A stretch of 64,000 bases of DNA from Bacteriovoracia bacterium (GTDB taxonomy: Bacteria; Bdellovibrionota; UBA1018; JBFWNL01), in contig JBFWNL010000001.1 in NCBI GenBank assembly GCA_050251055.1, positions 683,825 through 747,824 on the forward strand, written 5' to 3'. The position numbers and the translations under genes are program-made. Of this stretch, positions 11,996 to 59,288 are shown piece by piece. Below the pieces are notes generated by a model. The model was not told the origin of the DNA. It was given only the letters and a program-made list of their open reading frames with translations, and did not search any database. Numbering within the stretch: the first letter of the stretch is position 1; every line of letters begins with the position of its first letter.

Positions 11996-12016
11996 GAAAT
12001 AGGCAAGTTGGAGCGC

Positions 12017-29817: not shown

Positions 29818-29899
29818 GAAAAGTTAAATAACCGCCGGCACTTCCGGTGGCAAAGAAAAACCGCCTCGTAGGATCAGACACCCAATATCACGCGATGCG

Positions 29900-31384
29900 T
29901 CACAGCCCGAATTCGTATACCGACACCTTCGGGGTGGAAAATACTTCTTTAAAGCCATGCTGGCCGGGGTCCGGCAGTTTCATTCCCGTCATTAAGACAC
30001 AGGGACTCTTTTTCTTTAACTCCTCGGCCGTATAGCCATGGTCGTTAAATTGAACGAAGACTCGCCCCTCCCCGTTGTAAAACAACGCCTCCGGATACAG
30101 CCGATTCAAGTGCCACGAAAAGCGGTTAGCCAGGATATCGCCCAACCGAAACGCGGCGGGCACCCCAGACCCCAGATAAGTCGTGCCTTGCCGGCACTCC
30201 GGGCGGTTTTGGAGATACTGCGTCAACTGCTCCTCCGCGCGTACGTACTCCCGCTTTTCCGAAACGCCACGATAGTGCCCGACCGCGCCCACCAACAAAG
30301 TGCCGGCGACAAGCCAAGGCAACGGACGCCGGCTCTGAGCCGCCTGAGTTAAGTGCCGAGCGCAGAGCCACGCCAAGATCACGAACGAAGGCAGTAGATA
30401 GTGAGGCGCGGGATGCTTCAATACGACCAGAAACTGGAGAGTGCAGGCGATTACCGCTCCCACGAAGAACCGATCCCGCCGTCCATGAGCAATAATGAAG
30501 AACCAGGCACCGCCCAAGAGGCAGTAGAATTCCGGAATTTTACCGGCCAAGGAAATGAAATGACTACCCAGGGCCTTGAAATCAACGAAGCCCGCGTCGC
30601 CGCTACCGTACCTACCGGTGTGCGTCAGCAAGGATGAGAGCCAGAGCTGGAGCCGATCCAACTGCGACGAAATGGGCAAGAGCCAGCAAACCATGAAAAC
30701 AACCAGAAACAACCAGAACCACAACGTCCGGCGTTGACGTCCGGAAAAGGTCGGCCAGACGAGCAGTGGCAGGAAAACGACCTTGCTGGATATCGCGGTC
30801 GCGCCCGCGAGCGCCGCGCGCCACCCCGGCTTGAATGGCAAACCGGGCGCAGGCTCCATGAAATACGCGAAGAGCAGGGTCGCCAACACCAAAGTCTGCT
30901 CCGCGGTGAACTGATGGAGCAAATCCATCAGCGTCGGCGAAGATAACAGGCACAGCGCGAAGAAAAACGAAAAGGAATCCTGCGTCCGCCCGGAAGTCCG
31001 GCGATGGATCCAAAGCAATAAAAACGCGAAGGCAATCCGAAAGACCCAAGAGACCGTGGATAAATAAGCCTCCGGCGACTTCAGCACCGCCGAGGTGATG
31101 TCCTCGCGTTCGCTACCCACTGCCCGGGCGATTCCGTAGTGCACCCCCATCGCGACCGCCCCCACGATCTGGGCCGGCGTACCGGGATGATCGACGTAAC
31201 GGGCTTGATCCCGATTCAAAATCGTCAAGGAGCTGAGCAGATAGCCGTAATCGGGATCGGAATTCGCGCCGAGATAGACGGGGCCGCTCACCACGCGATA
31301 GCCGGAAACCACCACCATGATGGCCAGCCAGGCGCCGAAGAAGCGGGCGTTGGATGGGCTCAGGCCAAAACGCGAAAGCAACAA
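29900..31384 (-). CDS. Polytopic membrane protein, putative GT-C glycosyltransferase
   Basis: TM1 followed by DPDYGYL and DHPGTP loop; HTGRYGSG; KHPAPHYLLP. Confidence 0.65.
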   Translation of the reverse strand: MLLSRFGLSPSNARFFGAWLAIMVVVSGYRVVSGPVYLGANSDPDYGYLLSSLTILNRDQARYVDHPGTPAQIVGAVAMGVHYGIARAVGSEREDITSAVLKSPEAYLSTVSWVFRIAFAFLLLWIHRRTSGRTQDSFSFFFALCLLSSPTLMDLLHQFTAEQTLVLATLLFAYFMEPAPGLPFKPGWRAALAGATAISSKVVFLPLLVWPTFSGRQRRTLWFWLFLVVFMVCWLLPISSQLDRLQLWLSSLLTHTGRYGSGDAGFVDFKALGSHFISLAGKIPEFYCLLGGAWFFIIAHGRRDRFFVGAVIACTLQFLVVLKHPAPHYLLPSFVILAWLCARHLTQAAQSRRPLPWLVAGTLLVGAVGHYRGVSEKREYVRAEEQLTQYLQNRPECRQGTTYLGSGVPAAFRLGDILANRFSWHLNRLYPEALFYNGEGRVFVQFNDHGYTAEELKKKSPCVLMTGMKLPDPGQHGFKEVFSTPKVSVYEFGL

Positions 31385-43555: not shown

Positions 43556-45310
43556 ATGCCACGCATACACGAACTGACTCAGTTTTTAGGTAAAAAGACG
43601 CTTTGGCTCATGGTCATGGGCGTCTTCACCGGCATAACGCTATTTGGCATCGAAATTTTTTTCGCGCAAACGATCGACGTTTTCCTGCAGGCGATTGGCG
43701 GCACGCCGGTCGAGTCGATCGCCCGTTCTTTTCTCATCACCTGGCTCCCCTTAAACGGATTCACGAGCGTCTTGGTGTTACTCGGGACTTTGGGCGCGAT
43801 CCGCGGCCTACTCCAATGCGCGCAAGTTTACTTTCCCAGCCTCACGGCCGAAGAGCAACGCTTCGTCCATCGCGGTCGCGTCTTACACTGGGCCTTTCGC
43901 AGTCATTCCGCCAATAGCGGCGAGATCATGACTTTATTCAGCGATACGACTTCGGGCGCGGCGACCGCGATCTTGAGCGTACAAGCTTTGGCCGCCCTGA
44001 TTCCCGTCGCCCTGCTGCTCTGGGTAGGCTTGCTTCAGATCGCGATGATGCCTACCCTGATCGTCACCGGCTGCTTGGCGCTACTCGCGTTGGGGCTGAA
44101 GGCGCTCGATTCCATCACCCAACGCGCGGGCGTGCAGGTTGCGCGCGAAGGCGCCGCGATCAACGCCAACGTCCTGGCTAATATTAAAAACCTGCTGCTA
44201 ATGCAGATTTACGGGACCGAAGCCAAGGAAGCGAATCGCGTGGAGGCAAGCCTCGCGAACTACTATCGCCACAGTCATCTCCAGCTCGTGCTCATGAGCG
44301 CGAAGTACGCCATCCCGCAGATCTTCGGCGTCGTCCTCATCTGCATCATCACCGCGGCCGCGCTCCAAGGCCCGGATCGTCTACCGGCCGGCGTGCTGAT
44401 CGCCTATTTTTACCTGTTCGTGCGTTTCGTGCAGAACGTTTCGGAAATCCTGCGGCAGCTCTCTTTCATCGAATACTACAAGCCGCACCTCGTCCGCATG
44501 TTCGGCTGGTGGAAACAGAATGGGCAAGCCGCCCAAGCCTTACGGTTGGCGGTCCCATCCGCGCAGGTCCCTCCCCTACTCACCGGCCCGGGCGGCACGG
44601 GTTGGCGCCTTAAAGAGGTCGAGTTCCGCTATCCCGACGCGGCGGCTCCCGTGCTCCAAAAACTTTCGGCGGAGATCGCCCCGGGCGAAACGTTCGTGAT
44701 CGTGGGCCCTTCCGGATCCGGCAAGTCGACGCTCGTGTCTTTGCTTCTAGGTAACCTTCAACCCAGCTCGGGGGATGTGAAACTCGTCGTGAAAGACGAG
44801 AAAGGTACGGAAAACTTCCCGCTCGCCGAGGTGCGTGCTCGTTTCTTAAAAACCGTCGGTTACGTCGGTCCCGAGAGCTTCCTGCTCGCCGGCACAATCC
44901 TGGAAAACCTGACGTATGGTTTGGATCAGATGCCTAACCCCGCGCAGATTGAGCGCGCCCTGCAGACGGCGGAATGCCAATTCGTGTTCGAACTCCCCAA
45001 GGGCACGGCCCATCTGATTTCCGAGCAAGGCCAGGGGTTGTCCGCCGGCCAGAAGCAACGTCTCGCCCTGGCGCGCGCCCTCTTGCGTAATCCCACAACA
45101 CTGATCTTGGACGAGGCGACGGCGAATCTCGATCTCGAGACAGAACAACGGCTCGTGAACACTTTAAAGAAGCTCAAGCACAAGATGACCATCATCGGCG
45201 TCACGCATCGCCAAGCGCTGCTCGAAATCGCCGACCATACGTTGCGTCTGGAAGAATCTACTCAAACAGCGGGTGGCCCGCGGCCACGAATTCCCGCAAA
45301 AACTCTTTAA
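43556..45310 (+). CDS. ABC exporter, fused permease/ATP-binding (MsbA/PglK-like)
   Basis: N-terminal TMD; Walker A GPSGSGKST, signature LSAGQKQR, Walker B LILDEATANLD, THR switch. Confidence 0.92.
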   Translation: MPRIHELTQFLGKKTLWLMVMGVFTGITLFGIEIFFAQTIDVFLQAIGGTPVESIARSFLITWLPLNGFTSVLVLLGTLGAIRGLLQCAQVYFPSLTAEEQRFVHRGRVLHWAFRSHSANSGEIMTLFSDTTSGAATAILSVQALAALIPVALLLWVGLLQIAMMPTLIVTGCLALLALGLKALDSITQRAGVQVAREGAAINANVLANIKNLLLMQIYGTEAKEANRVEASLANYYRHSHLQLVLMSAKYAIPQIFGVVLICIITAAALQGPDRLPAGVLIAYFYLFVRFVQNVSEILRQLSFIEYYKPHLVRMFGWWKQNGQAAQALRLAVPSAQVPPLLTGPGGTGWRLKEVEFRYPDAAAPVLQKLSAEIAPGETFVIVGPSGSGKSTLVSLLLGNLQPSSGDVKLVVKDEKGTENFPLAEVRARFLKTVGYVGPESFLLAGTILENLTYGLDQMPNPAQIERALQTAECQFVFELPKGTAHLISEQGQGLSAGQKQRLALARALLRNPTTLILDEATANLDLETEQRLVNTLKKLKHKMTIIGVTHRQALLEIADHTLRLEESTQTAGGPRPRIPAKTL

Positions 45311-47474
45311 TCGGCGGCGCGACCATGTGGGCCGGCACGCCCGCCGCGCTCAGGATCGCCTCGCGCACCTGGGTCGCGCTCAAAGACTCACGGCGCGAAG
45401 CCGGGTGAGCGCAACTCTCGGTCACTTGCCCACAATCCGCGCAGTAGTAAGCGGCTTCAAATAGGATCGGCTGGATGCCGATGTCGCCTAGTTTACCGAA
45501 AATTTCCTGGGAAGCGTTGGCGGAATAATAATTCCCGACGCCCGTGTGATCGCGGCCCACCACGATGTGGCTGCAGCCGAAGTTCTTGCGGCAGATCGCG
45601 GTGAAGGCGGCTTCGTGCGGGCCCGCGTAGCGCGGATACGTATTGAATACTCCCAAGACCGCCGGATACGGGGCATAGAGATCTTCCTTCAAGGCGACGT
45701 CATACGCGCCCAAGATCGCCGGCGCCGTGAAGTCACCCGCTTTTTTTGGCCCGATCACGGGGCTGATGAAGAGCGCGTCCGCGTTCGCGCGCTTGAGCGC
45801 CTCACGCTGGATAAAGAGATGGCCCGCGTGCACGATGTTGCGGGTATGGAACGCCACGATCGTCCGCCAGCCCATCGTCGAAAAGAGCTTGCGCGACTGG
45901 CGCGGAGTCAGAAAATGCGGGGACGGCGCGGCGGAGCGCTCGAACGCCCGGAAAACCTCGCCGCTGATAATAAACTTACCCTTATCCCGAAAAGCCGTGA
46001 ACCCGGGATGCTTCTGATCGTGGGTACCGAACCAGCGCTCGCCGACGGAGACGAGGTCGATCTCCTCGACGGCCGCGACTTTAAGGTATCCACAGGCACG
46101 CGCTTCCCCGGGCGCCTGGAGCGCAACCCATTGGCCCGCTTTCACCGCCGGCTTATCCACCGACTGCAGGAGAATCGGCATCGTCCAGATCTCGCCGCTC
46201 GCGCAGCGGTTATCGTCGACGACACGCGCGAGCTCGGCCGCGCCCATGAAGTGCTTAATCGGCGAATAGACGCCTTCCACGATCTGCAGGACGTCGAGCG
46301 CCGTGCGCTCATCGATCGCGAGCTTTGGCCAGGTGGCGGCATTCGCCACGGTTTGACCGGGCGGTGTCGGTTGCTCGACCAGCGTTCCTCCGTGGGGCGC
46401 GATCAATCCGCCGTCGGAGCTACTTCGAATGAATTGGAGCGTGGTCTGATCGCTCCCCGCTTGGACTTGACCCGCGTAGCTGCCCACTTCGCGGATCGTC
46501 TGGCGGATCATGCGTACCGATTCGACGGGGTACTTCCCGATCGCGGTTTCGGCGGCGAGCACCAAGCCCGAGGCGCCGTTTAAGAGCGTGTTGGTTACGT
46601 CGTTAATCTCGGCGCGGGTGGGCTGAAGATTGTTGAACATGCTTTCGAGGAGGTTCGTGGCCACATAAGTGGGCGTACCGGCCGCGGTCGCGCATTGAGT
46701 GATGTATTTTTGGGCAAGCCCGATCTTCCAGATGTCCACATCGCGCGAGAGGTCGCCGCGGTCGATGAGAATGGCGTCGCTGACGCCCAAGATCTCGGCC
46801 AAGTTGGCGAGCGCGGCCGTGCTTTCGACCTTTGAAATGATCGTGACGGGACAGCCGAAAAACTCGCGCAGCCACTTCACATCGGCGCCCCGAGAAGCGA
46901 ACGAAAACGCCACGTGTTTTAGCCCGTGCTGCTTGGCAATGGCGAGCGCGGCCCGGTCTTTTTCGGTGAAGGGCGGCAGTTCGACCAGACGGTCCAGGCT
47001 TACCCCTTTGTTGCTGCCCACTAACCCGCCCGCTAGCACGCGGCCGTGCGCTCCTTGAGCATCCACGGCCGTGACTTGAATCACCGCGGAGTTGAAATCC
47101 AGATGCAAGACATCTCCCGCATGCAGGAGCTGCGCGGGATCGATGGGATAAAGCGGGATCACGGAATCGGTGCCGGTTTCTTGCGCGCCGACGAACCGTA
47201 CGCTCGCTCCCCGCCTAAGGGTGGTGGTCCCTTCTCCCATACGGCCGGTACGGATCTGTGCGCCTTCGGTATCCACACAAAGGGGCTTCTTCGTCCACTG
47301 CGAGACGTTGCGGATAATCTCCGGCAGTTTCTCGGCCGGGGTGTGAGACATATTGATGCGAAAGACATCCACCCCTTCGCGATCCATCGCCTCGACTTTA
47401 CGGCGATCCATGGACGCGGGTCCTAGGGTCACCAGCAATTGAATATCGGCGGGCTTTTCTACCGGAAGCTTCAT
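45258..47474 (-). CDS. Fusion of a pyruvate kinase-like domain (aa ~1-331) and sulfate adenylyltransferase/ATP sulfurylase (aa ~357-738)
   Basis: PK motifs: TLGPAS, RINMSH, IRTG, SKVE, RGDL, ATNLLESM, PTRAE, ETAIGKYPVE. Sat motifs: LIAPHGGTLV, GVYSP, FHTRN..HAGH, KKAGD, RYAGPHEA, RKNFGCSH..VGRDH.GVG, CxxC...CxH. One uninterrupted frame. Confidence 0.92.
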   Translation of the reverse strand: MKLPVEKPADIQLLVTLGPASMDRRKVEAMDREGVDVFRINMSHTPAEKLPEIIRNVSQWTKKPLCVDTEGAQIRTGRMGEGTTTLRRGASVRFVGAQETGTDSVIPLYPIDPAQLLHAGDVLHLDFNSAVIQVTAVDAQGAHGRVLAGGLVGSNKGVSLDRLVELPPFTEKDRAALAIAKQHGLKHVAFSFASRGADVKWLREFFGCPVTIISKVESTAALANLAEILGVSDAILIDRGDLSRDVDIWKIGLAQKYITQCATAAGTPTYVATNLLESMFNNLQPTRAEINDVTNTLLNGASGLVLAAETAIGKYPVESVRMIRQTIREVGSYAGQVQAGSDQTTLQFIRSSSDGGLIAPHGGTLVEQPTPPGQTVANAATWPKLAIDERTALDVLQIVEGVYSPIKHFMGAAELARVVDDNRCASGEIWTMPILLQSVDKPAVKAGQWVALQAPGEARACGYLKVAAVEEIDLVSVGERWFGTHDQKHPGFTAFRDKGKFIISGEVFRAFERSAAPSPHFLTPRQSRKLFSTMGWRTIVAFHTRNIVHAGHLFIQREALKRANADALFISPVIGPKKAGDFTAPAILGAYDVALKEDLYAPYPAVLGVFNTYPRYAGPHEAAFTAICRKNFGCSHIVVGRDHTGVGNYYSANASQEIFGKLGDIGIQPILFEAAYYCADCGQVTESCAHPASRRESLSATQVREAILSAAGVPAHMVAPPIKEFLREFVAAGHPLFE

Positions 47475-48004
47475 ACGAAGGCCTCTCCACCCGAGCCGGT
47501 CGGCACCCGGCTCAACACGTGTTTCACCAAGGCTTGGCCGATCTCTTCACGCGATGTCTTTTCGGTGTCAAAAGTAAACTCCGGATTGGCCGGGACTTCA
47601 AAAGGGTCGTCGATACCGGTGAAATTCTTAATCTCCCCCGCCCGGGCGCGAAGATAAAGCCCTTTAGGGTCCCGCTGCTCACAAACCTCCAATCGGGTGG
47701 CGAGATAAACTTCCGTGAAATCTTTGCACATGCCCCGCACGGCCGCACGCGCTTCGGCATACGGCGAAATAAACGAAGCGACCACCACCACGCCGTGCTT
47801 CTCGAGCATGCTCGCCACGTACCCCGCGTACTTGATGTGCCGGTCGCGGTCAGTGCGCGTAAACGACGTTTCGGGAAACACCGCACGAATGGCATCCCCG
47901 TCGAGGTGCTCCACGCGCAGTCCCTTGTCCTTCAGTTGACCCGTAACATAAGTCGCCAGGGTCGTTTTTCCGGAGCCTGAAAGCCCGGTTAGCCAAACTA
48001 CCAT
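47471..48004 (-). CDS. cysC: Adenylyl-sulfate (APS) kinase
   Basis: WLTGLSGSGKTT, LDGD.IR, SFISPY, RDPKGLY..ARAGEIKNFTGIDDPFE; ATGA overlap with the fusion gene. Confidence 0.95.
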   Translation of the reverse strand: MVVWLTGLSGSGKTTLATYVTGQLKDKGLRVEHLDGDAIRAVFPETSFTRTDRDRHIKYAGYVASMLEKHGVVVVASFISPYAEARAAVRGMCKDFTEVYLATRLEVCEQRDPKGLYLRARAGEIKNFTGIDDPFEVPANPEFTFDTEKTSREEIGQALVKHVLSRVPTGSGGEAFV

Positions 48005-48092
48005 TGTGGGCGGATATTAGTTTGGCGGCTTCGCCCTCGTCAAGCTTGGAAATCCTTGAGTTTTCCCAGGGTTTCCCAGATGATGACGCTCC

Positions 48093-48620
48093 ATGAAGTT
48101 TATTGAGTCGCCACTCACGGGCGTGTGGACCATCGAAGCCGAGACCTTTCGGGACGAGCGCGGGTCGTTTTCCCAGGTCTTTCTGACCGAGGAGTTCAGG
48201 CAACATAAACTCGAGACCGAGTTCGGCCAGTGGAGCCTTTCGGACAACGAGATCCGGGGAACGCTTCGCGGGATGCACTTCCAGAAACCTCCGTTCGCCC
48301 AGGGCAAGCTGATCCAATGCGTACGTGGGTCTATTTTTGATGTCGCGATCGACTTGCGCGAAGGTTCACCCACTTTCCGAAAGTGGTGGGGAACCGAAAT
48401 CAGCGCGAAGAACAACCGCATGCTGCACATCGCGCCCGGCTTCGCCCATGGTTTCATCACGCTGGAAGATCACACCTGCGTCTACTACCATCTGTCGAAG
48501 ACCTACACGCCCGATAGCCAGAGCGGGATTCGCTGGGATGACCCGAAGATCGGCATCCATTGGCCGCTGAATCCCACGCGTGTTTCGGATCGCGATCGCG
48601 CGTACCCGTTGCTCAAGTAG
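48093..48620 (+). CDS. rfbC: dTDP-4-dehydrorhamnose 3,5-epimerase
   Basis: DERGSF, GTLRGMHFQ, QGKL, DVAIDLREGSPTF, GFAHGF, GIRWDDP. Confidence 0.95.
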   Translation: MKFIESPLTGVWTIEAETFRDERGSFSQVFLTEEFRQHKLETEFGQWSLSDNEIRGTLRGMHFQKPPFAQGKLIQCVRGSIFDVAIDLREGSPTFRKWWGTEISAKNNRMLHIAPGFAHGFITLEDHTCVYYHLSKTYTPDSQSGIRWDDPKIGIHWPLNPTRVSDRDRAYPLLK

Positions 48621-49830
48621 TTCCGAGTTGATCGATCAGATAGTCGGCGATCGCAAGCGACGCCGTTGCTCCAGGGCTTGGCGCATTCAGTAGATGAAGC
48701 GCGCGCTCGGCTCTTTCGATACGAAAATCTTGAATCAACTGACCGCTCCCATCCATCGCTTGGGCGCGGATGCCGGAGTGCCCGGCTTCCAAATCTTCGG
48801 GTTGGATCTCCGGGACGAGTCGCTGCAACGCCCGACAAAACGCCGACCGACTGAGCGATTGCTTCAGCTCTGAAGCGATCATCGCGCGATGCCGACTGGC
48901 GAACCGGTATAACCCCGAAAAAAAAACCGCCTCTCCGAAATCCGCCAAATTGAAATCGCGCTTCCCGTAGCCTTCCCGCGCGAGCGACAAGATCGCGTTC
49001 GGCCCCGCATCGAGCGATCCGTCGATCCGACGGGTGAAATGCACGCCTAAAAAAGGAAACTTTGGATCTGGCAGTGGATAAAGGAGATGCCTCACCAGAT
49101 GCTTACGCGATTCCTTCACGCGGAAATAATCACCGCGAAACGGGACGATTCGTACCGCGGGCTCCAAGCCCGCCGAACGGGCCACCCGATCACATTGCAA
49201 TCCCGCGCAGTTGATCAGATGCGAAGCGCGAAAATCCCCGCACGTGGTGGCGACTACGTGGCCGTGGCCGGCACCGGGCCGCTCCCGGTGGAAACCACGT
49301 GCTTCGGCGCCGACGATCACCTCGCCCCCGGCCTCGCCGATCTTCTGGGCCAAACGACTCGCGACTTCGCGATAGTCCACGATACCCTCCTCGGGAACGT
49401 GCAGGGCACCCAGTCCCCGAGCGTGGGGTTCGATCTCTCCGATCTCCTCCGCCTGGAGCAGCCGCAAGCCGCGCAGCCCATTCTGCTGACCGCGCTCCAT
49501 CGTCGCGGGCAGGCGGGCTAGCTCTTCGGAGGTCGTGGCTACCATCAGTTTTCCGCAGATTTCGTGGGGAATCGAATTTTCGCGACAGAACTCGACCATC
49601 TGACGGACGCCATTGACGGCGAGCCGGGCCTTTAACGAACCGGGCACATAGGAAAGACCGGCATGGAGCACTCCGCTGTTATGCCCCGTCTGATGTTGGC
49701 CTACTTGAGGTTCTTTTTCGAGGACGCGCACGAAGGTGGCGGGATCACGCCGCTGCAGGCGATAGGCGGTGGCCAAGCCAATGATGCCACCCCCTATAAC
49801 TGCCACCGACCGACTCAAGCGCGTATCCAC
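48613..49830 (-). CDS. lhgO: L-2-hydroxyglutarate oxidase
   Basis: IGGGIIG, HQTGHNSGVLHAG..Y.PGSLKA, PFRGDY, YPLPDPKFPFLGVHFTR, GPNA, GIRAQA, NAPSPGATASLAI. Confidence 0.9.
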   Translation of the reverse strand: MDTRLSRSVAVIGGGIIGLATAYRLQRRDPATFVRVLEKEPQVGQHQTGHNSGVLHAGLSYVPGSLKARLAVNGVRQMVEFCRENSIPHEICGKLMVATTSEELARLPATMERGQQNGLRGLRLLQAEEIGEIEPHARGLGALHVPEEGIVDYREVASRLAQKIGEAGGEVIVGAEARGFHRERPGAGHGHVVATTCGDFRASHLINCAGLQCDRVARSAGLEPAVRIVPFRGDYFRVKESRKHLVRHLLYPLPDPKFPFLGVHFTRRIDGSLDAGPNAILSLAREGYGKRDFNLADFGEAVFFSGLYRFASRHRAMIASELKQSLSRSAFCRALQRLVPEIQPEDLEAGHSGIRAQAMDGSGQLIQDFRIERAERALHLLNAPSPGATASLAIADYLIDQLGTT

Positions 49831-50744
49831 TCTTTGATTCGGAATAGGACGTCATGCATTGACCACCCCAGCACGGGGGTAAGGCCAGCGTCGAAAGTTA
49901 GTCGATACCTACGCACCTGAGCGAGAGCGCGCCCCAATGCTTCCAGGTAAGGGGGATAAATAAACTGTTTCGCGCCACCAGGTAATCGGTACCCCTCCGC
50001 CTTCACGAAGCTTCCATCTTTGCGCCAACGAAGTGCGTGAAAATGACAGAATACCACGGCCGTGCCGTCGACGCAGGGCCCTTCGGTTATATCATAGTTA
50101 AAGAAATTCCAAGGCGCTACCCCCCCCCCTAAATGTTGCAAAACGTGCACACCGGGAAAACGCGTCTTCCAGTCGTCTAGGTATTTCTGGTCGCCAAACT
50201 TGCCATCCTCCGCACGGGCAAAACACCACTCAAGACACCGTGCTTTCCACCAGTCTAGTGCGGCTAGACCTCGATCGTCATGACGAAAACCCATGAACTG
50301 CACGCAGTAAACACCGCTGGTCAATGAATGATCGTACTTAGGAGTATAACGATGTTCGGTTAAGAGAACCGAGGAGCCCGACTTAGCGAACTCAACCAAT
50401 AATGGCTCCACCGAAGAAAAGAAAAAGAGATCGGCGTCCAGATAAATCACGGAACCAAGACTCAGCTTACGTAGACAGTGGTCAATAATCGACGGCGTGC
50501 AAGTCCAGCAATACTCCGCCACATTCCGGCCCGACTTCACGCTCAAAAGCTCCGGCGTTTCAAACTCGTTCGCACCCACCGGGGTCACGCCGGGCAGCGG
50601 ATAATGGCTCAAATATTGAAACGATTCGTCATCCAGGCAAAACGCCCAAACGCGGCTTTCGGGAGAATACCGATGCAAGGACTCCATCATCGCGATCGCG
50701 CGCGTGAGGTAAACGGAATTAAACAGCGTACAGAAGTTTTTCAC
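49815..50744 (-). CDS. Putative GT-A fold glycosyltransferase containing a poly-G tract
   Basis: GTG start overlapping the upstream stop. FCTLFNSVYL, EYCWTCTP, YLDADL (DxD), GKFGDQKYLDDW, HLGGGVAPWN, HFH. Confidence 0.8.
   Translation of the reverse strand: MKNFCTLFNSVYLTRAIAMMESLHRYSPESRVWAFCLDDESFQYLSHYPLPGVTPVGANEFETPELLSVKSGRNVAEYCWTCTPSIIDHCLRKLSLGSVIYLDADLFFFSSVEPLLVEFAKSGSSVLLTEHRYTPKYDHSLTSGVYCVQFMGFRHDDRGLAALDWWKARCLEWCFARAEDGKFGDQKYLDDWKTRFPGVHVLQHLGGGVAPWNFFNYDITEGPCVDGTAVVFCHFHALRWRKDGSFVKAEGYRLPGGAKQFIYPPYLEALGRALAQVRRYRLTFDAGLTPVLGWSMHDVLFRIKEWIRA
50120..50129 (-). repeat. G10 homopolymer (C10 on + strand) inside the glycosyltransferase
   Basis: Coding strand TTA GGG GGG GGG GTA = L-G-G-G-V. 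Confidence 0.9.
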
Positions 50745-51403
50745 GCGCCCATTTCCAAGTGATAAATCGACGTAATCGCAAGCAACCCCGGGAACTTCTG
50801 CACGAGCCCCTGTTTCCACCCCGTACGCGAACTGCCGAGATGACGGCGATCCAAGATACGCCAACCCTGGGCAGCGACGTAGTCCTCAAAGTCGCGAACG
50901 CCGAGCTGATGGATATGACCGGTGGAATGCCAATCGTAGCCAAAAAGCAAGGGATGCGGCATGCGCCCGTGACAGAGCAGGTCCCACCGATTGGACCAGT
51001 GGCCGAAATTTGGGAAGGAAATGATCTGGCGGCGCGCGACGCGCTTCATTTCGGACATGAGCACTTCCGGGAACATCACCATCTGCACGGTGACGTTGCA
51101 GACCGCGTAGTCGAAAGAACCGGACGTGACATCCTTTAGGGGCTGATCGATCGACCCCTGGTTGACCTGCAGTCCTTTGCGGCGCGCCGACTCCACGCCG
51201 GAAGCCGAGAGCTCGATTCCCTGCCCCGCACACTGCTTCCCGTCGCGCAGCTTCGCCAAGAGCGCGCCGTCACCACAACCCAAGTCCAATACGCGGGCGC
51301 GCGGAGGAACCCAATCGGAGATGACCGGGTACTCGGCCCGGTCGTCGTGCGAGTCAGGTGCGTAAAAATAGTTCCGATTGTCGGTGGAATTCATCGGTGC
51401 CAA
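50741..51403 (-). CDS. MetW-like SAM-dependent methyltransferase
   Basis: VLDLGCGDG, IISFPNFGHW..R, GRMP, HIH. Confidence 0.85.
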   Translation of the reverse strand: MAPMNSTDNRNYFYAPDSHDDRAEYPVISDWVPPRARVLDLGCGDGALLAKLRDGKQCAGQGIELSASGVESARRKGLQVNQGSIDQPLKDVTSGSFDYAVCNVTVQMVMFPEVLMSEMKRVARRQIISFPNFGHWSNRWDLLCHGRMPHPLLFGYDWHSTGHIHQLGVRDFEDYVAAQGWRILDRRHLGSSRTGWKQGLVQKFPGLLAITSIYHLEMGA

Positions 51404-51474: not shown

Positions 51475-52701
51475 GTGAAGCTCTTGCGCCTTTCCGCCTC
51501 CTATCCTCGCTATTTGGCTAATTTCTACGCCAAGCACGCCGGCCTAGCGGACGCCCCTTATGACACACAAAGTCTTGAACTCGCGAAAGACGCGTTCGGC
51601 TGGGCAGACTTTTGGACGAACAGCCTGCCCAAGCACGGGTACGAAGTTTTGGAAATCGTGGCCAACGCCCAGTTCGCACAAAGGGCCTGGGCACGCGAAT
51701 ACGTGCCTCGGTTAGCGGACGCATCGACGCTTACCATAGCGACTGAACAGGTAAAACAGGTTCGACCCGACATACTTTGGATCTGCGACGTCGAGTTTTT
51801 CGGTACCGATTGGGTGCGCGAGATCCGCGCGGCCTGTCCATCCATTCAACTCGCCATCGCCTGGATGGGAACGCCCGCATACGAGGGAATTGCCGGGCTC
51901 GATGCGTTCGATGGGATTCTCTCGTGCGTGCCCGAGATCGTGACCGACCTCCGGAAGCGGGGACACCGCTCCGATCATCTTCACCATGCTTTCGACGCCC
52001 GTATCTACGACCGCACCCACGCGAACGCGGAAGGCAGCCTGCCGCTCACGTTCGTCGGCCAAGTCCATCGTGAAAAGGGCTTTCACCTGCGGCGCGAAGA
52101 ACTCCTGCTCAAACTCGTGAATCAAGTCCCGCTGCAGCTCTATAGTCCGTCTTCCCAAGTGAACCTGAAAGACATTGCCAAGGCCTACGTGAAGCAAGCC
52201 GCCTACGCCAGCGCCCAAGCACTGCAAAGCCTCGGCGTCTCCAAAGATCGCGTCGCCCTCCTGCCAGGCTTGAAGAACATCGCGCACCGGTCGTCCAAGC
52301 CTCTCGTCCCCGTAGACCTTCGTCTGTTGAGATTCCTGCGCCCGGGTGTATTCGGGCTCGAGATGTTCCAGATTTTGCGGAACTCGCTCGTCTCGTTGAA
52401 CGTGCACATCGACGCTTCGCCGCGCTCCGCTTCCAATATGCGGCTTTTCGAAGCCACCGGCATGGGCTCGTGCCTACTGACAGAGTGGCGAGAAAACCTA
52501 GGTGAGCTATTCACGTTAGATACGGAAGTCGTGACTTACCGTTCGCCCGAAGAATGCCGCGAAAAAGCGCGCTGGCTCATAGACCATCCGCAGGATGCGA
52601 CTCGCATCGGCGAAGCCGGGCGTAAGCGCACGCTCACCGCGCACCAGTTCCAGCATCGCGCCCCGCGTCTGGATCAAATTCTGAAACAATGGCTCCCTTA
52701 G
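51475..52701 (+). CDS. CgeB-family glycosyltransferase (Glyco_trans_1_2)
   Basis: LTFVGQ, VFGLEMF, SLNVHID...SNMRLFEATGMGSCLLT, GRKRTLTAHQF. Confidence 0.85.
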   Translation: MKLLRLSASYPRYLANFYAKHAGLADAPYDTQSLELAKDAFGWADFWTNSLPKHGYEVLEIVANAQFAQRAWAREYVPRLADASTLTIATEQVKQVRPDILWICDVEFFGTDWVREIRAACPSIQLAIAWMGTPAYEGIAGLDAFDGILSCVPEIVTDLRKRGHRSDHLHHAFDARIYDRTHANAEGSLPLTFVGQVHREKGFHLRREELLLKLVNQVPLQLYSPSSQVNLKDIAKAYVKQAAYASAQALQSLGVSKDRVALLPGLKNIAHRSSKPLVPVDLRLLRFLRPGVFGLEMFQILRNSLVSLNVHIDASPRSASNMRLFEATGMGSCLLTEWRENLGELFTLDTEVVTYRSPEECREKARWLIDHPQDATRIGEAGRKRTLTAHQFQHRAPRLDQILKQWLP

Positions 52702-54344
52702 GCACCTTTCTACTCATGACGATCGTCACCGCAGGATTCGCCTTCTCCTTTTGGGGCTGGGGAGCCGGGGCCGCACGCGGGTTGAAGCTCCCTTCGTATG
52801 TGGAGGGCCTGCTCGGGATTTTTGTCGTCGGATTTATCACCTTGTTTTTGAATTTTTTTATCCCGATCTCGCCCTTCATCTCGTCAGCAATCACCGCCGT
52901 GGGGGCGGGCTCTGGAATCTTGGTGCTGAAAAAGTCCGGTCCAAAGGCGCGCTCTGGATACGGGACGGAGTTCGCGTACGTTGGATTTTTCTTGCTCGTT
53001 TTCTTGGCTTGGTCGCAGGCTTCAGCCGTCGTGTACGACACCGGGCTCTACCATTTGCCGATCTTGAAGTGGAAGCAGGACTTCGCGACCCCGCTCGGCG
53101 TCGTACATCTGCATAGCCGGCTTGCCACCAACTCGGTCTGGTTCGCGGCCGCGGCTTCCACCTTGCTTCCCGACCTGGGTGTGGATCCGGCGTTCTGCCT
53201 CAACATCCTCTTCGCCGCGTTCACCGCGCGCCTTCTGTTGCTCGCGTCCCCGAACGACGGGACCATTATCAGCTTTTGGCTAGGTGGACTAATGCTCCTC
53301 TGTCTCGTCCTCTTCAATGGCCCGCTCGCTTTCGTAGGCTCCGTCTCCAACGACTTACCCACGAATTTACTTCCGTTGATCTGCGTCTTTTTAGCTGTGC
53401 GCAGCTGGGAACAACGGCGCTATGATCCCGCACTTCCGCTCTTTGCGGTTTTAAGCACCACGATCAAGGCCTCCGGAGCCTTGAACGTTTTGATTTGCCT
53501 CCCCCCACTCGTTTTGCTCGGCATGAATGCGGTGAAAGCCACCCTCGCTTCCCAAATCTGGCGAACCCTCGCGTTCCTGGGCGGCTGCTTGATCCTGTGG
53601 TGCACATACGGAATCCTCACTTCGGGCTGCCTCGTCTATCCGTTCTCGGGCACTTGTCTCTACGCCCTACCCTGGAGCGCCACGCCCGCCGACGTCGCCG
53701 GCGAAATGGGGGCGATCAAAGCCTGGGCCCGCTCGCCGTTTGGTCACCCCGACGTCGTGCTAAAAGACTGGGCTTGGCTGCCCGCTTGGTGGGCGAGCTT
53801 CAATGATCTTCCTTTGATTCGAGCTACAGCTATCTTGGGGGTAGTAGGCGCCTTGGGCATACTGGCGAAGAGCCTGCTTCGTAAGGCGCCCTTCCCGCGA
53901 TTGATTTTGGGATTGGGTGTGGCGCTCGTGGTGCCGCTCGCCGCCTGGTTCATCTCGGCGCCCGACCCACGCTTTGCCTTTGGGTATTTCCTAGCGCTCG
54001 GCTGCTTGCCGGCCGCCTGGGTTTTCGCGAAAACCGCGGGCAAGCGGCTCGCCTACTATGCTCCGCTCGGGATCCTCGCGATCTGTGCCCTGACCGGCCT
54101 CACCAAGTTGAATCGCGCATGGCCGACCCAACTCAAAAGCGCGACTTTGCCCCTAGCCGCCCACGACGGCACTCAGGGCAAAGTCTCCCTCATGAAAGCC
54201 GGGGGAATCGAGCTCAAACAACCTGTAGGAACCGATCAATGCTGGATGCAAACGCCCCCGTGCACGCCCTACGTACGCAAGGGGTGGACCGGGGTGATGC
54301 ACGGGTATCACATGATTTTCACCCGCGTCGAACCCGCGATCTGA
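52689..54344 (+). CDS. Polytopic membrane protein, LIC_10190-like (putative GT-C)
   Basis: YDTGLYHL, LHSRLATNS, SGCLVYP, PDPRF, CWMQTPPCTPY; paralog of 20460..22103. Confidence 0.75.
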   Translation: MAPLGTFLLMTIVTAGFAFSFWGWGAGAARGLKLPSYVEGLLGIFVVGFITLFLNFFIPISPFISSAITAVGAGSGILVLKKSGPKARSGYGTEFAYVGFFLLVFLAWSQASAVVYDTGLYHLPILKWKQDFATPLGVVHLHSRLATNSVWFAAAASTLLPDLGVDPAFCLNILFAAFTARLLLLASPNDGTIISFWLGGLMLLCLVLFNGPLAFVGSVSNDLPTNLLPLICVFLAVRSWEQRRYDPALPLFAVLSTTIKASGALNVLICLPPLVLLGMNAVKATLASQIWRTLAFLGGCLILWCTYGILTSGCLVYPFSGTCLYALPWSATPADVAGEMGAIKAWARSPFGHPDVVLKDWAWLPAWWASFNDLPLIRATAILGVVGALGILAKSLLRKAPFPRLILGLGVALVVPLAAWFISAPDPRFAFGYFLALGCLPAAWVFAKTAGKRLAYYAPLGILAICALTGLTKLNRAWPTQLKSATLPLAAHDGTQGKVSLMKAGGIELKQPVGTDQCWMQTPPCTPYVRKGWTGVMHGYHMIFTRVEPAI

Positions 54345-55312: not shown

Positions 55313-55431
55313 GACTAAGTTAGTCGCATCTTTTGCTTGCAGTTTCAATCGGTTCGACAGCGGAGGTGGCGCCACGCAGCAACTCGGATTGCATCGCGAC
55401 AAGAGTCTTGAGGGGGCGCCCCCAAGAAGGT

Positions 55432-56058
55432 ATGACCGTTTTTATGGAGCCACTCTCGAACTGCATGACCCCGGAGGTCATCGCCAAGATCAACCATTTC
55501 ATCGACGAGAACTTCCCTTATCAGGACGCCAAGTTCGTGTTCCAGGACCCAAAATTCCGCGATTTTTTCGTGGCGAATATCTCGCCCGAAATCCGCGCTT
55601 ACATTAAACCCGAGAGTTACATCGTTCTTCGCATGATCAAGCCCCGGGGCGGGGTCCATGCGTACGATTTCCATTTCGACAACTACGCTCAGACTATCCT
55701 CGTGCCGCTCATGACGCCCGATGCGCATCAAAACGGGGACCTCTTGCTTCGGCACCATACACGCGGAGCCCCACGCTTTATTCTGATGCATATCTGGCAG
55801 AAGTTTCTTTTCCAAAACACCCTGGCCCTGAAGCTCTGGTCCTGGCTCGCCACGAAGGAACGTTTCTTTCGCCGGGTCCGGGTAAAGCCGGGAAGCGCGC
55901 TCGTATTCGACGGCTCCCGATCGCTCCACGGAAACATGCCAGTGCAGGCGGGAGAGCGGCGATCGGTGCTGATCCATAACCAGAAATTGTTCAGCGGGTC
56001 GAAAGCCGTGGAATGGATCGAAGGCTATAGCCAGTATCGCAAACAGAAGGCCCAATAA
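55432..56058 (+). CDS. Hypothetical protein with 2OG-Fe(II) oxygenase-like motifs
   Basis: FHFD (HxD), NGDL, PGSALVFDG..SLHG (distal His), RRS. Family assignment is inferred. Confidence 0.55.
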   Translation: MTVFMEPLSNCMTPEVIAKINHFIDENFPYQDAKFVFQDPKFRDFFVANISPEIRAYIKPESYIVLRMIKPRGGVHAYDFHFDNYAQTILVPLMTPDAHQNGDLLLRHHTRGAPRFILMHIWQKFLFQNTLALKLWSWLATKERFFRRVRVKPGSALVFDGSRSLHGNMPVQAGERRSVLIHNQKLFSGSKAVEWIEGYSQYRKQKAQ

Positions 56059-56064
56059 CCCGCT

Positions 56065-57063
56065 ATGTCCGAGCAACTTACTTGTTTTCCATCCACTCAG
56101 CAGGTAAAGAAAGGCATGTCTTTGCCCCTGGAATCCCAGGCAGATTACAGTGACGTCGCGGTCCTGCTTCCCTGCTACAATGAGGAAATCACCATCGCCA
56201 AGGTCGTCGCCGATTTCCGCACACACCTTCCGGGCGCCAAGATCTACGTCTTTGACAATAATTCCAACGACCGTACCTCCGAGCGCGCGCGCGGAGCCGG
56301 CGCGACCGTCGTCCCTTCTCCGAAGCAGGGCAAGGGATGCGTCGTACGTCACATGTTCGATACGGTGGAAGCGACGATCTACCTCATGGCCGACGGCGAT
56401 GACACTTATCCAGCTAAGTCGGCCCCCCAGCTGATCCAGGAATGCCGCGGCGGCGTGGATATGGTGGTGGGCATTCGCATGGAGTCGTACGACCAGTCCG
56501 CCTCCCGTCGTTTCCACAAATTCGGAAATCACTTAGTGGCGCGCCTGATCTCTTTGTCCTTCTCGACGAAAGTCACGGACGTGCTGTCGGGCTTCCGTGC
56601 GTTCTCGCGGTCATTCGTGAAGTCCGTACCGCTCGTGTCGGTGGGATTCACGATCGAAACCGAGATGACGATGCAAGCGGTGGCGAAGGGATTTTCGCTT
56701 CGGGAAATTCCCATCGAATACGGCGCCCGTCCCGAAGGCAGCTTTTCTAAACTTCGTACTTACAGCGACGGCACAATCGTGCTCGCCACCATCGTCGATA
56801 TTTTCAAGAACTATAAACCACTCACCTTCTTCGGGGGACTCTGCGTCCTGCTCGGCGTGATTTCTGCGATCGTTGGCTCAGCCCCGGTTATGGACTTCTT
56901 CACCACGGGGGTAGTGGTGCACGTTCCACGCGCAGTGCTCGCCGCCGCGCTGGCTATCATGGCCATGCTCTCGCTGGGCATCGGCCTTATCTTGGACTCT
57001 ACCTGCAAATACCACCACGAGACGTTTACGCTCTGGCGTCGCGTCCTCACCCAAAGCAAATGA
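56065..57063 (+). CDS. Glycosyltransferase family 2, polyprenol-phosphate (GtrB/DPM-like) with two C-terminal TMs
   Basis: LPCYNEE, DNNSND, QGKG, DGDDTY, DVLSGFRAFSR, GFTIETE, RPEGSFSKL. Confidence 0.92.
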   Translation: MSEQLTCFPSTQQVKKGMSLPLESQADYSDVAVLLPCYNEEITIAKVVADFRTHLPGAKIYVFDNNSNDRTSERARGAGATVVPSPKQGKGCVVRHMFDTVEATIYLMADGDDTYPAKSAPQLIQECRGGVDMVVGIRMESYDQSASRRFHKFGNHLVARLISLSFSTKVTDVLSGFRAFSRSFVKSVPLVSVGFTIETEMTMQAVAKGFSLREIPIEYGARPEGSFSKLRTYSDGTIVLATIVDIFKNYKPLTFFGGLCVLLGVISAIVGSAPVMDFFTTGVVVHVPRAVLAAALAIMAMLSLGIGLILDSTCKYHHETFTLWRRVLTQSK

Positions 57064-57755: not shown

Positions 57756-59288
57756 CTAAAGGTCAGGCTTCAACCGGACTTCGAGCCCGCAATGGCGCAC
57801 CGGAACCATACCGTTCGTCGGCGGCTGGTCGGAGATCGCGAATTCTCCGTTTAACTGCGTAATGTATTGGACTTTGCCAGGTTCCGCCGCTGGCCACCCA
57901 CAACGTTTCAATTCGCGGCCGAGATCGACCACGATGTTCATCGGCTGCTCCCAACCGTATTCGCGACCGGTGAAGACGTACGGACGCAGCTCCCCGCTCC
58001 AAGGCAGGCACGCCTTCCCGGCCGGGCTGGCCGTCGCTTCATACTTCATCACGAATTCTCCGGCGTACTCGTGCGTCCGATGCAAGATGCGGCCGCAGTA
58101 CGCGAGGAGACCAACGATCGCCAAAGCCTGCGCCCCGCGCAGGAGCAGCGGATGGGAAACGCGTGCGCGGACCAGTTCGACCACTCCGTACAGGCCGAGG
58201 AGCACGAAGAACGCGCGCACGAAGACGAGATAAAGGAACATGCGCTGGATGAAATGGTATTTATACAGAATCACCGCCACGGCAGTGGCGGCAAAAACTC
58301 CGATAAAGAACCAAGAAAGCGCGCCCAAGGCGAAGAGCTGGCGTTCCCTAGCGTTCCAGCTCGAACGCCGGCGAAAAAGCACGCACACATACGCCATGCC
58401 CGCCACCAAGAGGAGGTTGAAAGGCATTGCAAACAATCCGTCTTGCCAGAGCAGGCTGCGCACGGAGTGGATTTGATCCCAGTTCAGCGGGCCGGCCGCC
58501 GAACCGGCGCAGAAACCCGCGTGGCGCGAATAAAAGAGGCCGATGGCGGCAAAAATGGCGCCAGAGATTCCGAAGTATCGGAAGGCTTTGCGTCCGCCGG
58601 AGCCATCCATCACGAGTGAAAGCATTCCGAGTACGAAACAGCACACTCCTACCTGCATCCAGCCGGGGTTGGACGTGAAAGTCAGCAGAAAGCTTGCACC
58701 CGCAAACCAGAGCTTATCTCCACGAGTGATCTCGCCCCAGGACTTCCGGCTAAGACGCACCGTCAGCGCAACTACGAGCATGAAGAACCCCATCCACAGG
58801 GAGTAAGGACGGGTCTCGGTCGTGTAAAAGTGAAAGATCATTCGCTGCCCTACCAGCGCGAGCGCGAATAGCCCGTAAGACCAGCCTAGCAAAGTTGCGC
58901 CGACATAGACCACAGAGGCCATTGCCACGAAGCCCGCCGCGAGCGGTTCTATGCGGTAAGTGAGCAGAATCGAGTCGTCGAAGTCGCGGGTGCCATGCGA
59001 GACCGCGCGCTGGATGATGTGATGGAGCGGCGGAACGTTGCACGCGTTGGGGGCGCCACGGACAAAAAATTTGGAATACGGGTACGCGCAGGTATCGTAA
59101 ATTTCGAAACCCTCGTCCTGCCAAAAGGGCTTGTGCTGCGCGATTCGGGCTTCCTGATAGCTGAGTACGGTCAACATGATCAGAGTGAGGACGCAGAAGA
59201 CTGCCGATCGTCGGGACAACCTGAGCTTCGAAATCATAGATATCCGATCTTTACTAGAAAAACTCAGGCGTGGGTACTGGTTGCTCAA
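57756..59288 (-). CDS. GT-C fold membrane glycosyltransferase (GT39/ArnT-like)
   Basis: TM1 followed by PFWQDE, PPL, ETRPYSL; about 11 TMs. The start may be ~59238. Confidence 0.65.
   Translation of the reverse strand: MSNQYPRLSFSSKDRISMISKLRLSRRSAVFCVLTLIMLTVLSYQEARIAQHKPFWQDEGFEIYDTCAYPYSKFFVRGAPNACNVPPLHHIIQRAVSHGTRDFDDSILLTYRIEPLAAGFVAMASVVYVGATLLGWSYGLFALALVGQRMIFHFYTTETRPYSLWMGFFMLVVALTVRLSRKSWGEITRGDKLWFAGASFLLTFTSNPGWMQVGVCCFVLGMLSLVMDGSGGRKAFRYFGISGAIFAAIGLFYSRHAGFCAGSAAGPLNWDQIHSVRSLLWQDGLFAMPFNLLLVAGMAYVCVLFRRRSSWNARERQLFALGALSWFFIGVFAATAVAVILYKYHFIQRMFLYLVFVRAFFVLLGLYGVVELVRARVSHPLLLRGAQALAIVGLLAYCGRILHRTHEYAGEFVMKYEATASPAGKACLPWSGELRPYVFTGREYGWEQPMNIVVDLGRELKRCGWPAAEPGKVQYITQLNGEFAISDQPPTNGMVPVRHCGLEVRLKPDL

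Follow-up and report, generated by a model that had tools for sequence, protein, structure and literature searches.

A C-domain-less pyruvate kinase fused to ATP sulfurylase and coupled to cysC: a candidate PAPS-supply unit in a bacterial surface-glycan cluster

Results

A pyruvate kinase–ATP sulfurylase fusion coupled to cysC

The minus strand of a 64,000-nucleotide stretch of a Bacteriovoracia bacterium genome (contig JBFWNL010000001.1, positions 683,825 to 747,824; hereafter the window) carries a two-gene operon whose first gene, cysC (P0002; 47471..48004), encodes a 177-aa adenosine 5′-phosphosulfate (APS) kinase and whose second is a 738-aa open reading frame (ORF) with an ATG start (P0001; 45258..47474 in the ORF list) that joins a pyruvate kinase (PK) to an ATP sulfurylase (Sat). 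In line with a preliminary description of this DNA, which had read in one frame a PK barrel plus B domain and then a complete Sat, Pfam and the ORF list agree on the order of the parts, all on the minus strand: the PK A barrel and B lid span residues 12–320 (46515..47441; PF00224, E = 6.6e-59), a linker of about 37 aa without a Pfam match covers residues 321–357 (46404..46514), the PUA-like N-terminal ATP sulfurylase domain corresponds to residues 358–507 (45954..46403; PF14306 (PUA_2), 1.2e-27) and the ATP-sulfurylase catalytic domain to residues 522–728 (45291..45911; PF01747, 1.3e-61). The PF00224 match is a single stretch (200.1 bits, cut-off 30) and, because it runs unbroken from profile position 5 to 328 of 328, the B/lid domain is present. 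The C-terminal domain of PK, whose place Sat had been proposed to take, is indeed absent: PK_C (PF02887) gives no Pfam match on the 738-aa protein at E ≤ 0.01, and the genome's other PK does carry it. Among solved structures, residues 12–329 match the A and B domains of PK chains 5wrp and 2e28, no part of the fusion aligns to a PK C domain, and residues 359–729 have their best matches in two Sat enzymes, one from Methanothermococcus thermolithotrophicus (8a8d, 9.3e-67) and the other from Thermus thermophilus (1v47, 5.3e-65). The motif LIAPHGGTLV occupies residues 356–365; the linker is poorly conserved in the family, the consensus of the fusion alignments being mostly ‘x’ there, and an ESM Atlas model of the exact fusion sequence has a pTM of 0.62 and a pLDDT of 0.85.

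The cysC product matches PF01583 (4.9e-51, 173.2 bits against a cut-off of 21.1) and TIGR00455 (187 bits, above the cut-off of 138.7), and bears the P-loop GLSGSGKT at residues 7–14. As had been noted from the sequence, its TGA overlaps the ATG of the fusion gene (ATGA, 47474-47471); a Shine-Dalgarno-like GGAGAGG (47488-47482), located within cysC and separated from the ATG by a 7-nt spacer, completes a coupling signal (47471..47488, minus strand) with which the two genes read as translationally coupled. Just upstream of cysC lies a weak promoter-like TTGACG-18-TAATAT (48014..48043, minus strand); a scan for promoters and terminators around the operon did not rise above shuffled sequences (one promoter-like site found, 0.9 expected).

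The possibility that an assembly or frameshift artefact joined two genes is exceedingly remote. Two runs of a single landfill-metagenome study yielded Logan contigs that span 45000-48084 and 45000-48200 with 0 mismatches and 0 gaps; the runs are possibly the source samples and are thus a control for the assembler, not for the data, and because their contigs are identical across the stretch the frame is not an accident of assembly. Both contigs run through the linker; no RNA run is listed among those that contain the sequence. The 80 best of at least 574 genome stretches encoding a relative all span query residues ≤30 to ≥715 in one frame. The third-position GC content (GC3) of the fusion is ordinary as well, at 0.755 compared with 0.707 +/- 0.063 for the genes of the window.

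A glycan cluster with a sulfotransferase and no sulfate-reduction genes

Pfam analysis of the window proteins places the operon inside a surface-glycan cluster with a sulfotransferase. The cluster, of about 30 kb, comprises GT2 and GT1-like transferases, two DegT aminotransferases, FdtA, a C-methyltransferase, RmlA/RmlC-type genes, a CMP-nonulosonic-acid operon with a NeuB fusion, and an ABC exporter. The sulfotransferase, presumed to be the consumer of 3′-phosphoadenosine 5′-phosphosulfate (PAPS), is encoded about 11 kb from the fusion (P0497; 33587..34450, minus strand; PF00685) and shows a GRSGQGW loop and LLARDPRDVAVS, which we take to be the 5′-phosphosulfate and 3′-phosphate binding motifs of PAPS sulfotransferases. 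PF00685 has no further match in the genome, and PF13469 has none anywhere in the assembly, which amounts to 3.77 Mb in 21 contigs and is 93.5% complete.

The fusion is also the only ATP sulfurylase of the genome, and cysC its only APS kinase (PF01583). Since neither the PAPS_reduct family (CysH/CysD) nor the NIR_SIR sulfite reductase has a match in the whole assembly, sulfate activation most likely serves sulfation and not cysteine synthesis, and the cysC and PK–Sat operon looks like a dedicated PAPS supply. The term ‘self-contained’, which the preliminary description had applied to the unit, has to be dropped: as the cluster holds no pyrophosphatase, PAP phosphatase or sulfate transporter, the unit is dedicated, not self-contained. 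A single Inositol_P (CysQ/SuhB-type) gene lies outside the glycan cluster, no SulP sulfate transporter was found in the genome, and there is one membrane H+-PPase (G000:C5:37106-39220); soluble pyrophosphatase, searched for as family I, has no match in the genome. The PK family has two matches, namely the fusion and a full-length enzyme on contig 7, which carries PF02887 (1.2e-31) and is 31% identical to the fusion PK.

The PK module keeps its catalytic residues and belongs to a separate clade

In 120 fusions, residues R39, N41, S43, H44, D68, R75, K156, K215, E217, D238-R239-G240-D241, T273, E289, D292 and E309 are invariant or nearly invariant, with K215, E217, D241, T273 and E309 invariant in 120/120. 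By motif and by alignments to 5wrp and 2e28, the fusion residues presumably correspond to R72, N74, S76, H77, D112, R119, K206, K269, E271, D295, T327 and E363 of the rabbit enzyme. A wider comparison set 61 C-domain-less PKs (41 of the 120 fusions, chosen as the query plus one in three of the others, together with 18 stand-alone barrels and 2 PK–CysC fusions) against 24 canonical PKs (the genome's own and one from each of 23 carrier genomes, with the second canonical copies of G163 and G011 left out). The same residue is at least 90% conserved in both groups at 38 positions, which include R39, N41, S43, H44, D68, R75, K156, K215, E217, D241, T273 and E309, while eight positions are conserved within each clade and different between them (C-domain-less/canonical: A72/P, F127/D, D238/A, S243/G, N274/Q, L275/M, V305/M and A307/S). 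To judge from these residues, the catalytic machinery of the PK part is intact and its second shell differs.

In a midpoint-rooted FastTree phylogeny (LG+gamma) of 85 sequences over 329 columns, all 61 C-domain-less PKs group in a single clade (SH-like support 0.96) opposite the 24 canonical ones (1.0), the branches between them measuring 0.43 and 0.49. All 41 fusion PKs and two stand-alone sequences make up one subclade (0.97), inside which the fusion PKs by themselves do not make a supported node (0.08); the 16 remaining stand-alone sequences and the two PK–CysC ones fall outside it. A second PK, scoring 331–422 bits compared with 191–260 for the fusion, is present in 23/30 carrier genomes; in the other seven, five of which measure 0.6–0.8 Mb, the fusion is the only PK match.

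These data bear on whether the module works as a kinase or is catalytically idle, acting as a PEP (phosphoenolpyruvate)/ADP sensor or as an oligomerisation scaffold for Sat. An idle module would fit the loss of the domain that makes PK tetrameric and regulated, and degenerate kinase domains on Sat have a precedent in fungal ATP sulfurylase, whose APS-kinase-like domain is a PAPS sensor; yet the catalytic Lys, Glu, Asp and Thr and the nucleotide-binding Arg and Lys are at least 90% conserved in 61 sequences from very distant phyla, and in seven of the 30 carrier genomes there is no PK match besides the fusion. We regard this explanation as quite unlikely.

As a separate observation, the canonical-type second PKs of L179, L180, L183 and L184 (340–365 bits) lie in frames of only 340–363 aa and cluster with the canonical PKs in the tree.

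The sulfurylase module carries a His/Thr signature

The Sat part displays the motifs H543-T-R545-N546, H549xxH552, G575xxK578xxD581 and G640-R-D-H643-T644, in which R545, N546, HxxH, GxxKxxD and GRDH are kept (invariant or nearly so in 120 fusions), and a Gln is replaced by H543 and an Ala by T644; it thus reads FHTRN and GRDHTG compared with FQTRN and GRDHAG in the solved enzymes 8a8d and 1v47. H543 is invariant in 120/120 fusions and T644 present in at least 90%. The 119 matches listed for the Sat part alone, many of which are fragments of fusions, divide into 105 with His and Thr, 1 with His and Ser, 5 with His and Ala and 8 with Gln and Ala. Unfused Sats on long contigs, such as P0123 and P0144, can be of the His/Thr type as well, and in 160 loci the Sat motif in or beside a PK fusion is always His; the single Gln/Ala case among them is L122, where a separate Sat gene precedes a stand-alone barrel.

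According to PMC3779200, which names the HxxH, GxxKxxD, GRD and QXRN motifs of Sat, the sulfate oxygens of APS form hydrogen bonds with the QXRN Gln, with the Arg that follows it by two positions and with the backbone NH of the Ala, and the loops making these contacts are strictly conserved in the enzymes compared there. In the fused Sat, the N-H of the His together with the same backbone N-H could still bind sulfate, and sulfate is taken as the substrate because the neighbouring genes are of the PAPS type; affinity, product inhibition or specificity may nevertheless be changed.

The fusion family is widespread

The Pfam architecture search proposed earlier returned PK, PUA_2 and ATP-sulfurylase in one protein for 120/120 clusters listed for the full-length query (own cluster included), the other 119 being 42–52% identical to it; in their source databases these relatives are named ‘pyruvate kinase’ or ‘sulfate adenylyltransferase’. 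When 1.84 billion proteins are represented at 50% identity, 68 of the 150 representatives listed align in a single match from residue ≤61 to ≥640, and ESM Atlas clusters with the PK–Sat architecture have 76, 53 and 104 members. With one genome per species, at least 574 of 607 pattern-matched stretches encode a relative, unfused forms maybe included. Carriers are found in Saccharibacteria and Staskawicz-, Nealson- and Colwellbacteria of the CPR, in the DPANN Woese- and Pacearchaeota, in Bacteroidetes, Ignavibacteria, Planctomycetes including anammox genera, Omnitrophota, Verrucomicrobiota, Nitrospina, Marinimicrobia, Gemmatimonadota and Chloroflexi, and in Delta-, Alpha- and Gammaproteobacteria; one carrier is a cultured isolate, Pseudaminobacter soli HC19.

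Within the window's own order the fusion is present in 2/116 genomes (G000 and G101), in two copies that are 50% identical, the rest showing matches only through a housekeeping PK (30–38% identity) or a separate Sat. The G101 copy also resides in a glycan cluster, with a convergent cysC 9 bp away. Recent horizontal transfer of the fusion, judged by composition, was rejected for want of any anomaly, even though so few genomes of the order carry the gene.

Sulfation genes recur next to the fusion

Neighbourhoods were counted in the 80 best genome loci of the fusion. APS kinase was scored by tblastn and Pfam, an iterated APS-kinase hidden Markov model (HMM) having been set aside because triple fusions drew in every fusion, and a sulfotransferase was counted only if assigned to a Pfam family at E ≤ 0.01; of 44 HMM candidates checked in this way (L061 was left out of the check), five without a Pfam family went uncounted (L012:10854, L013:10353, L021:11260, L046:383 and L052:6710). 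cysC, sulfotransferase and glycan genes do recur around the homologs, as their suggested neighbourhood analysis was meant to reveal: cysC is found in 45/80 loci, a Pfam-supported sulfotransferase in 44/80 (and in 30 of the 49 loci with at least 5 kb on both sides), one or the other in 60/80, and glycan genes in 13 of 15 fully annotated loci. cysC lies directly downstream on the same strand in 32 loci (two of them fused), directly upstream as in the window in 4, adjacent on the other strand in 2 and elsewhere in the locus in 7, and in ten loci the fusion, cysC and a sulfotransferase follow one another with no gene between (L009, L011, L014, L017, L018, L039, L042, L059, L073 and L083). A CysQ-like gene accompanies the fusion in 13/80 loci. 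For comparison, PF00685 has matches in only 2/14 well-known control genomes.

APS kinase is encoded in 73/80 carrier genomes; of the 35 whose locus has no cysC, 28 show a strong match elsewhere and 2 a marginal one; a role of PK as a substitute for APS kinase is disfavoured by this count. A tie between PK and the PEP-using NeuB synthase was rejected too, with NeuB in 11/80 and 2/80 loci; since it occurs in only 11/80, PK follows sulfation and not PEP-using sugar synthesis. Carriers have a membrane H+-PPase in 43/50 cases and a family-I soluble PPase in 12/50, a pattern that the window's genome shares, and a link to the economy of pyrophosphate (PPi) was discarded because 54/61 genomes of one carrier's order possess an H+-PPase anyway, leaving no specific association.

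Among the loci with neither cysC nor sulfotransferase in the retrieved flanks, L030, L035, L043, L050, L051, L056, L063, L067 and L070 are alphaproteobacterial, and NeuB and CMP-transferase genes are common in loci of this kind. In L030 (fusion 10151-11881) a sulfatase-family (PF00884) gene directly follows the fusion, and a stand-alone PF01261 gene lies nearby. In L036, the APS kinase makes up the first ~150 residues of a 738-aa protein (10166-12382), and Pfam assigns no family to the other ~580 residues at E ≤ 0.01.

The same PK clade is joined to CysC, to Sat and CysC, or to neither

With the PK part alone as query, 120/120 matches listed are without PK_C (precomputed Pfam), and many are complete proteins of about 330–350 aa on contigs of up to 716 kb. 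The clade includes PK–CysC fusions, in which Pfam confirms PK and APS kinase (P0256 and P0351), and PK–Sat–CysC triple fusions, both among the protein clusters listed (P0003, 944 aa; P0025, 910 aa; P0115, 906 aa) and at genome loci (L079, 918 aa; L082, 930 aa). A set of 80 metagenome loci recruited with a stand-alone-barrel alignment contains 49 PK–Sat fusions, 29 stand-alone barrels (defined by a stop 5–110 residues past the barrel match) and 2 loci truncated where the contig ends. cysC directly adjoins the stand-alone barrel, of about 337 aa, in 7 of 27 loci without Sat. In 11 stand-alone loci annotated with Pfam, a sulfotransferase is next to or near the barrel in L115, L152, L156 (two), L163 and L165, and an APS kinase accompanies it in L143, L152, L155 (Pfam) and L162 (tblastn), so that one or the other is found at 8 of the 11.

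A neutral or selfish fusion, by which an ordinary second PK became joined to Sat with no functional coupling, has nothing specific in its favour beyond the fact that fusions of neighbouring genes do occur. It would leave unexplained that the PK clade is linked to sulfation genes in four architectures and as a stand-alone protein, that a long and supported branch separates it from housekeeping PKs, and that at least 68 clusters represented at 50% identity have retained the fusion, and is accordingly considered very unlikely.

In the 859-aa P0416, a Sat of the His/Thr type is attached to a full-length PK that still has PK_C; the signature of this PK is mixed (PPKDDSELMS) and it falls outside both PK clades. 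P0416 could be an intermediate or an independent fusion. Sulfurylases also bear other accessory domains: a type I phosphodiesterase/nucleotide pyrophosphatase domain (PF01663) stands in front of PK–Sat in the 1151-aa P0419 and is joined directly to Sat in a separate family of 61 members, and an ESM Atlas cluster of 881-aa proteins belongs with these cases.

Discussion

A PEP-driven module for PAPS synthesis

Sat converts ATP and sulfate to APS and PPi in a strongly unfavourable reaction, CysC phosphorylates APS with ATP to give PAPS and ADP, and PK forms ATP and pyruvate from ADP and PEP. We propose that cysC and PK–Sat, as a translationally coupled two-gene operon, make PAPS for the sulfotransferase of the cluster and that the combination probably provides PEP-driven removal of CysC's ADP together with a local supply of ATP. 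In this scheme the Sat domain would produce APS and PPi, CysC would turn APS into PAPS and ADP, and the PK module, which has kept its catalytic apparatus and lost the allosteric, tetramerising C domain, would return the ADP to ATP at the expense of PEP. The gain would be kinetic and local, not thermodynamic: ADP would be removed before it could trap APS kinase in the dead-end E-ADP-APS complex, and the two sites that consume ATP would stay well supplied with it irrespective of how the housekeeping PK is regulated at the time, from whose glycolytic regulation the loss of the C domain would free the fused module. Such trapping has been described in vitro: in PMC9885120, human PAPSS1 without a PK/PEP module left the PAPS peak practically missing while ADP piled up, and the failure is ascribed to APS kinase being caught as E-ADP-APS.

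The view of the trimmed PK as a local ADP scavenger and ATP supplier follows from its being tied to CysC at least as tightly as to Sat, a tie evident from the PK–CysC fusions and from stand-alone PKs that sit beside cysC without Sat. Two parts of the original proposal consequently fare differently. That PK recycles CysC-derived ADP gains from the conserved residues, from these architectures and from the in-vitro precedent of PMC9885120; that PK feeds the unfavourable Sat step is weakened, the evidence tying PK more to the removal of CysC's ADP. PK activity, a benefit of proximity, an association of the fusion protein with CysC and a sulfated glycan as end product would each be expected if the proposal is correct.

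Several observations weigh against this interpretation. The cell already has a housekeeping PK, and any benefit of a second, fused one therefore depends on proximity; moreover, the Sat step is limited by its product PPi, which PK leaves untouched. In 20/80 loci, largely alphaproteobacterial, the retrieved flanks contain no cysC and no sulfotransferase; among the 35 carriers whose locus lacks cysC, 5 have no APS kinase match and 2 a marginal one, all of these being metagenome-assembled genomes of unknown completeness; and Pfam finds no sulfation gene at 3 of the 11 stand-alone loci (L110, L132 and L137). The remaining points concern the proteins themselves. The PK part scores below the NCBIfam equivalog cut-off (TIGR01064, 242.6 against 306.4), several of the eight clade-specific positions flank catalytic residues, by which an altered PK substrate becomes possible, and Q73 (47256-47258) is fixed in the C-domain-less clade where canonical PKs have K (79%) or E. 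At this position K+-dependent PKs presumably have Glu and K+-independent ones Lys. Finally, in the Sat lineage of the fusion two of the three sulfate contacts are replaced together, by His and Thr.

Part of this list can be read as a sign that the module is a PK descendant with a changed reaction, transferring phosphate from PEP (or ATP) onto another acceptor of the sulfation pathway, with the His/Thr Sat handling a modified anion or intermediate. The eight substitutions and Q73, the sub-threshold PK score, the carriers without a detectable APS kinase and the Gln-to-His and Ala-to-Thr exchanges (both positions changed in 106 of the 119 matches listed, 105 of them to His and Thr, and likewise in the Sat motifs of the fusion loci; the contacts are those named in PMC3779200) would all suit such an enzyme. 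It is at odds, on the other hand, with the retention of every residue known to bind PEP, Mg, K and nucleotide, with APS kinase in 73/80 carrier genomes, with PAPS-type sulfotransferases and CysQ-like genes as the usual neighbours, and with P0416, which joins to the same Sat type a full-length PK of mixed signature from outside both clades. We judge a changed reaction unlikely, and hold to PEP-driven ADP removal as the probable role. The Sat part, too, stays below its NCBIfam cut-offs (TIGR00339, 247.2 against 322.95; NF003166, 318.1 against 387); scores under these whole-protein thresholds are what a divergent two-part protein is expected to give. NF004040, for bifunctional PAPS synthases, is likewise not reached (171.6 for the fusion and 177.3 for CysC, cut-off 669).

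A bolder and rather improbable reading takes the fixed changes beside both active sites (A to D, G to S, Q to N and S to A in PK; Gln to His and Ala to Thr in Sat) as marks of a co-evolved pair that would exceed the sum of a textbook PK and a textbook Sat, either by nucleotide hand-over within a PK–Sat–CysC particle or by a directly PEP-driven activation of sulfate or a related anion. It would amount to a new way of paying for the most unfavourable step of sulfur activation.

Relation to known systems

Like the NF004040 PAPS synthases, which the fusion relatives with a C-terminal CysC (P0003, L079 and L082) resemble, the present system has a Sat-type sulfurylase working with an APS kinase toward PAPS. 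Aquifex aeolicus Sat-CysC and human PAPSS1/2 are bifunctional ATP sulfurylase–APS kinases of this sort; here, unlike in PAPS synthases, CysC is a separate, upstream and coupled gene and a PK module forms the N terminus of the fusion. The CysC–Sat fusion P0465 has Gln/Ala at the sulfate contacts, whereas PK–Sat has His/Thr. With canonical PK (EC 2.7.1.40; 5wrp, 2e28 and the contig-7 enzyme) the fusion shares the A barrel, the B lid and the catalytic and ligand residues, and differs from it in the missing C domain, the separate clade and the eight fixed differences; because the C domain is absent, the fused PK is without a known allosteric site. The homo-oligomeric ATP sulfurylases of M. thermolithotrophicus (8a8d) and T. 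thermophilus (1v47) share the PUA-like and catalytic domains and the HxxH, GxxKxxD and GRD motifs, but carry no PK. Rhizobial NodP/NodQ-NodH and mycobacterial CysDNC-Stf0 are cases of a dedicated PAPS supply beside a glycan or lipid sulfotransferase, and use a CysD/CysN sulfurylase in which GTP hydrolysis, not PEP, gives the push; in contrast to these modules, the window's genome has no match to the CysD family. The closest functional counterpart is the in-vitro PAPS cascade of PMC9885120, which combines the same activities (sulfurylase, APS kinase, and PK with PEP) on the same rationale of ADP removal; it consists of engineered separate enzymes plus a pyrophosphatase, whereas here PK is covalently attached to Sat and the cluster is without pyrophosphatase.

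That no characterised PK–Sat fusion was known at the outset is borne out by a full-text literature search, with subscription journals and supplements outside its scope, in which no paper on a PK–sulfurylase or PK–APS-kinase fusion was found; the available portion of a Nitrospinota genome paper (PMC10839748) does not mention one. The parts are textbook enzymes; their combination, like the separate PK clade and the His/Thr Sat, appears to be undescribed.

Synthesis of PAPS, the universal sulfate donor, is constrained at two points, the first step being unfavourable and the second inhibited by ADP and APS. If the proposed role is correct, a natural enzyme family with its own PEP-driven ATP-recharging module would show a microbial solution to these limits and, as far as the searches reach, would be the first instance of a glycolytic ATP-forming enzyme recruited as a dedicated biosynthetic accessory. 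The database names ‘pyruvate kinase’ and ‘sulfate adenylyltransferase’ would have to be corrected for many carriers (at least 574 stretches), the gene would point to sulfated surface glycans across many uncultured lineages (CPR, DPANN, Omnitrophota and Planctomycetota), and the fusion would offer a compact catalyst for enzymatic PAPS production, to which, in PMC9885120, PK and PEP are added by hand.

Other features of the window

Downstream of the operon, the 3′ ends of the fusion gene and of the convergent ABC exporter gene (43556-45310, plus strand) overlap by 53 nt (45258-45310). At E ≤ 0.01, Pfam assigns no family to six long ORFs of the glycan cluster, two on the plus strand (28867-29871 and 52689-54344) and four on the minus strand (29900-31384, 49815-50864, 55345-56532 and 57756-59288). 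In the CMP-nonulosonic-acid operon, the NeuB and SAF synthase is fused to a xylose-isomerase-like barrel (PF01261; 37884-39782, minus strand).

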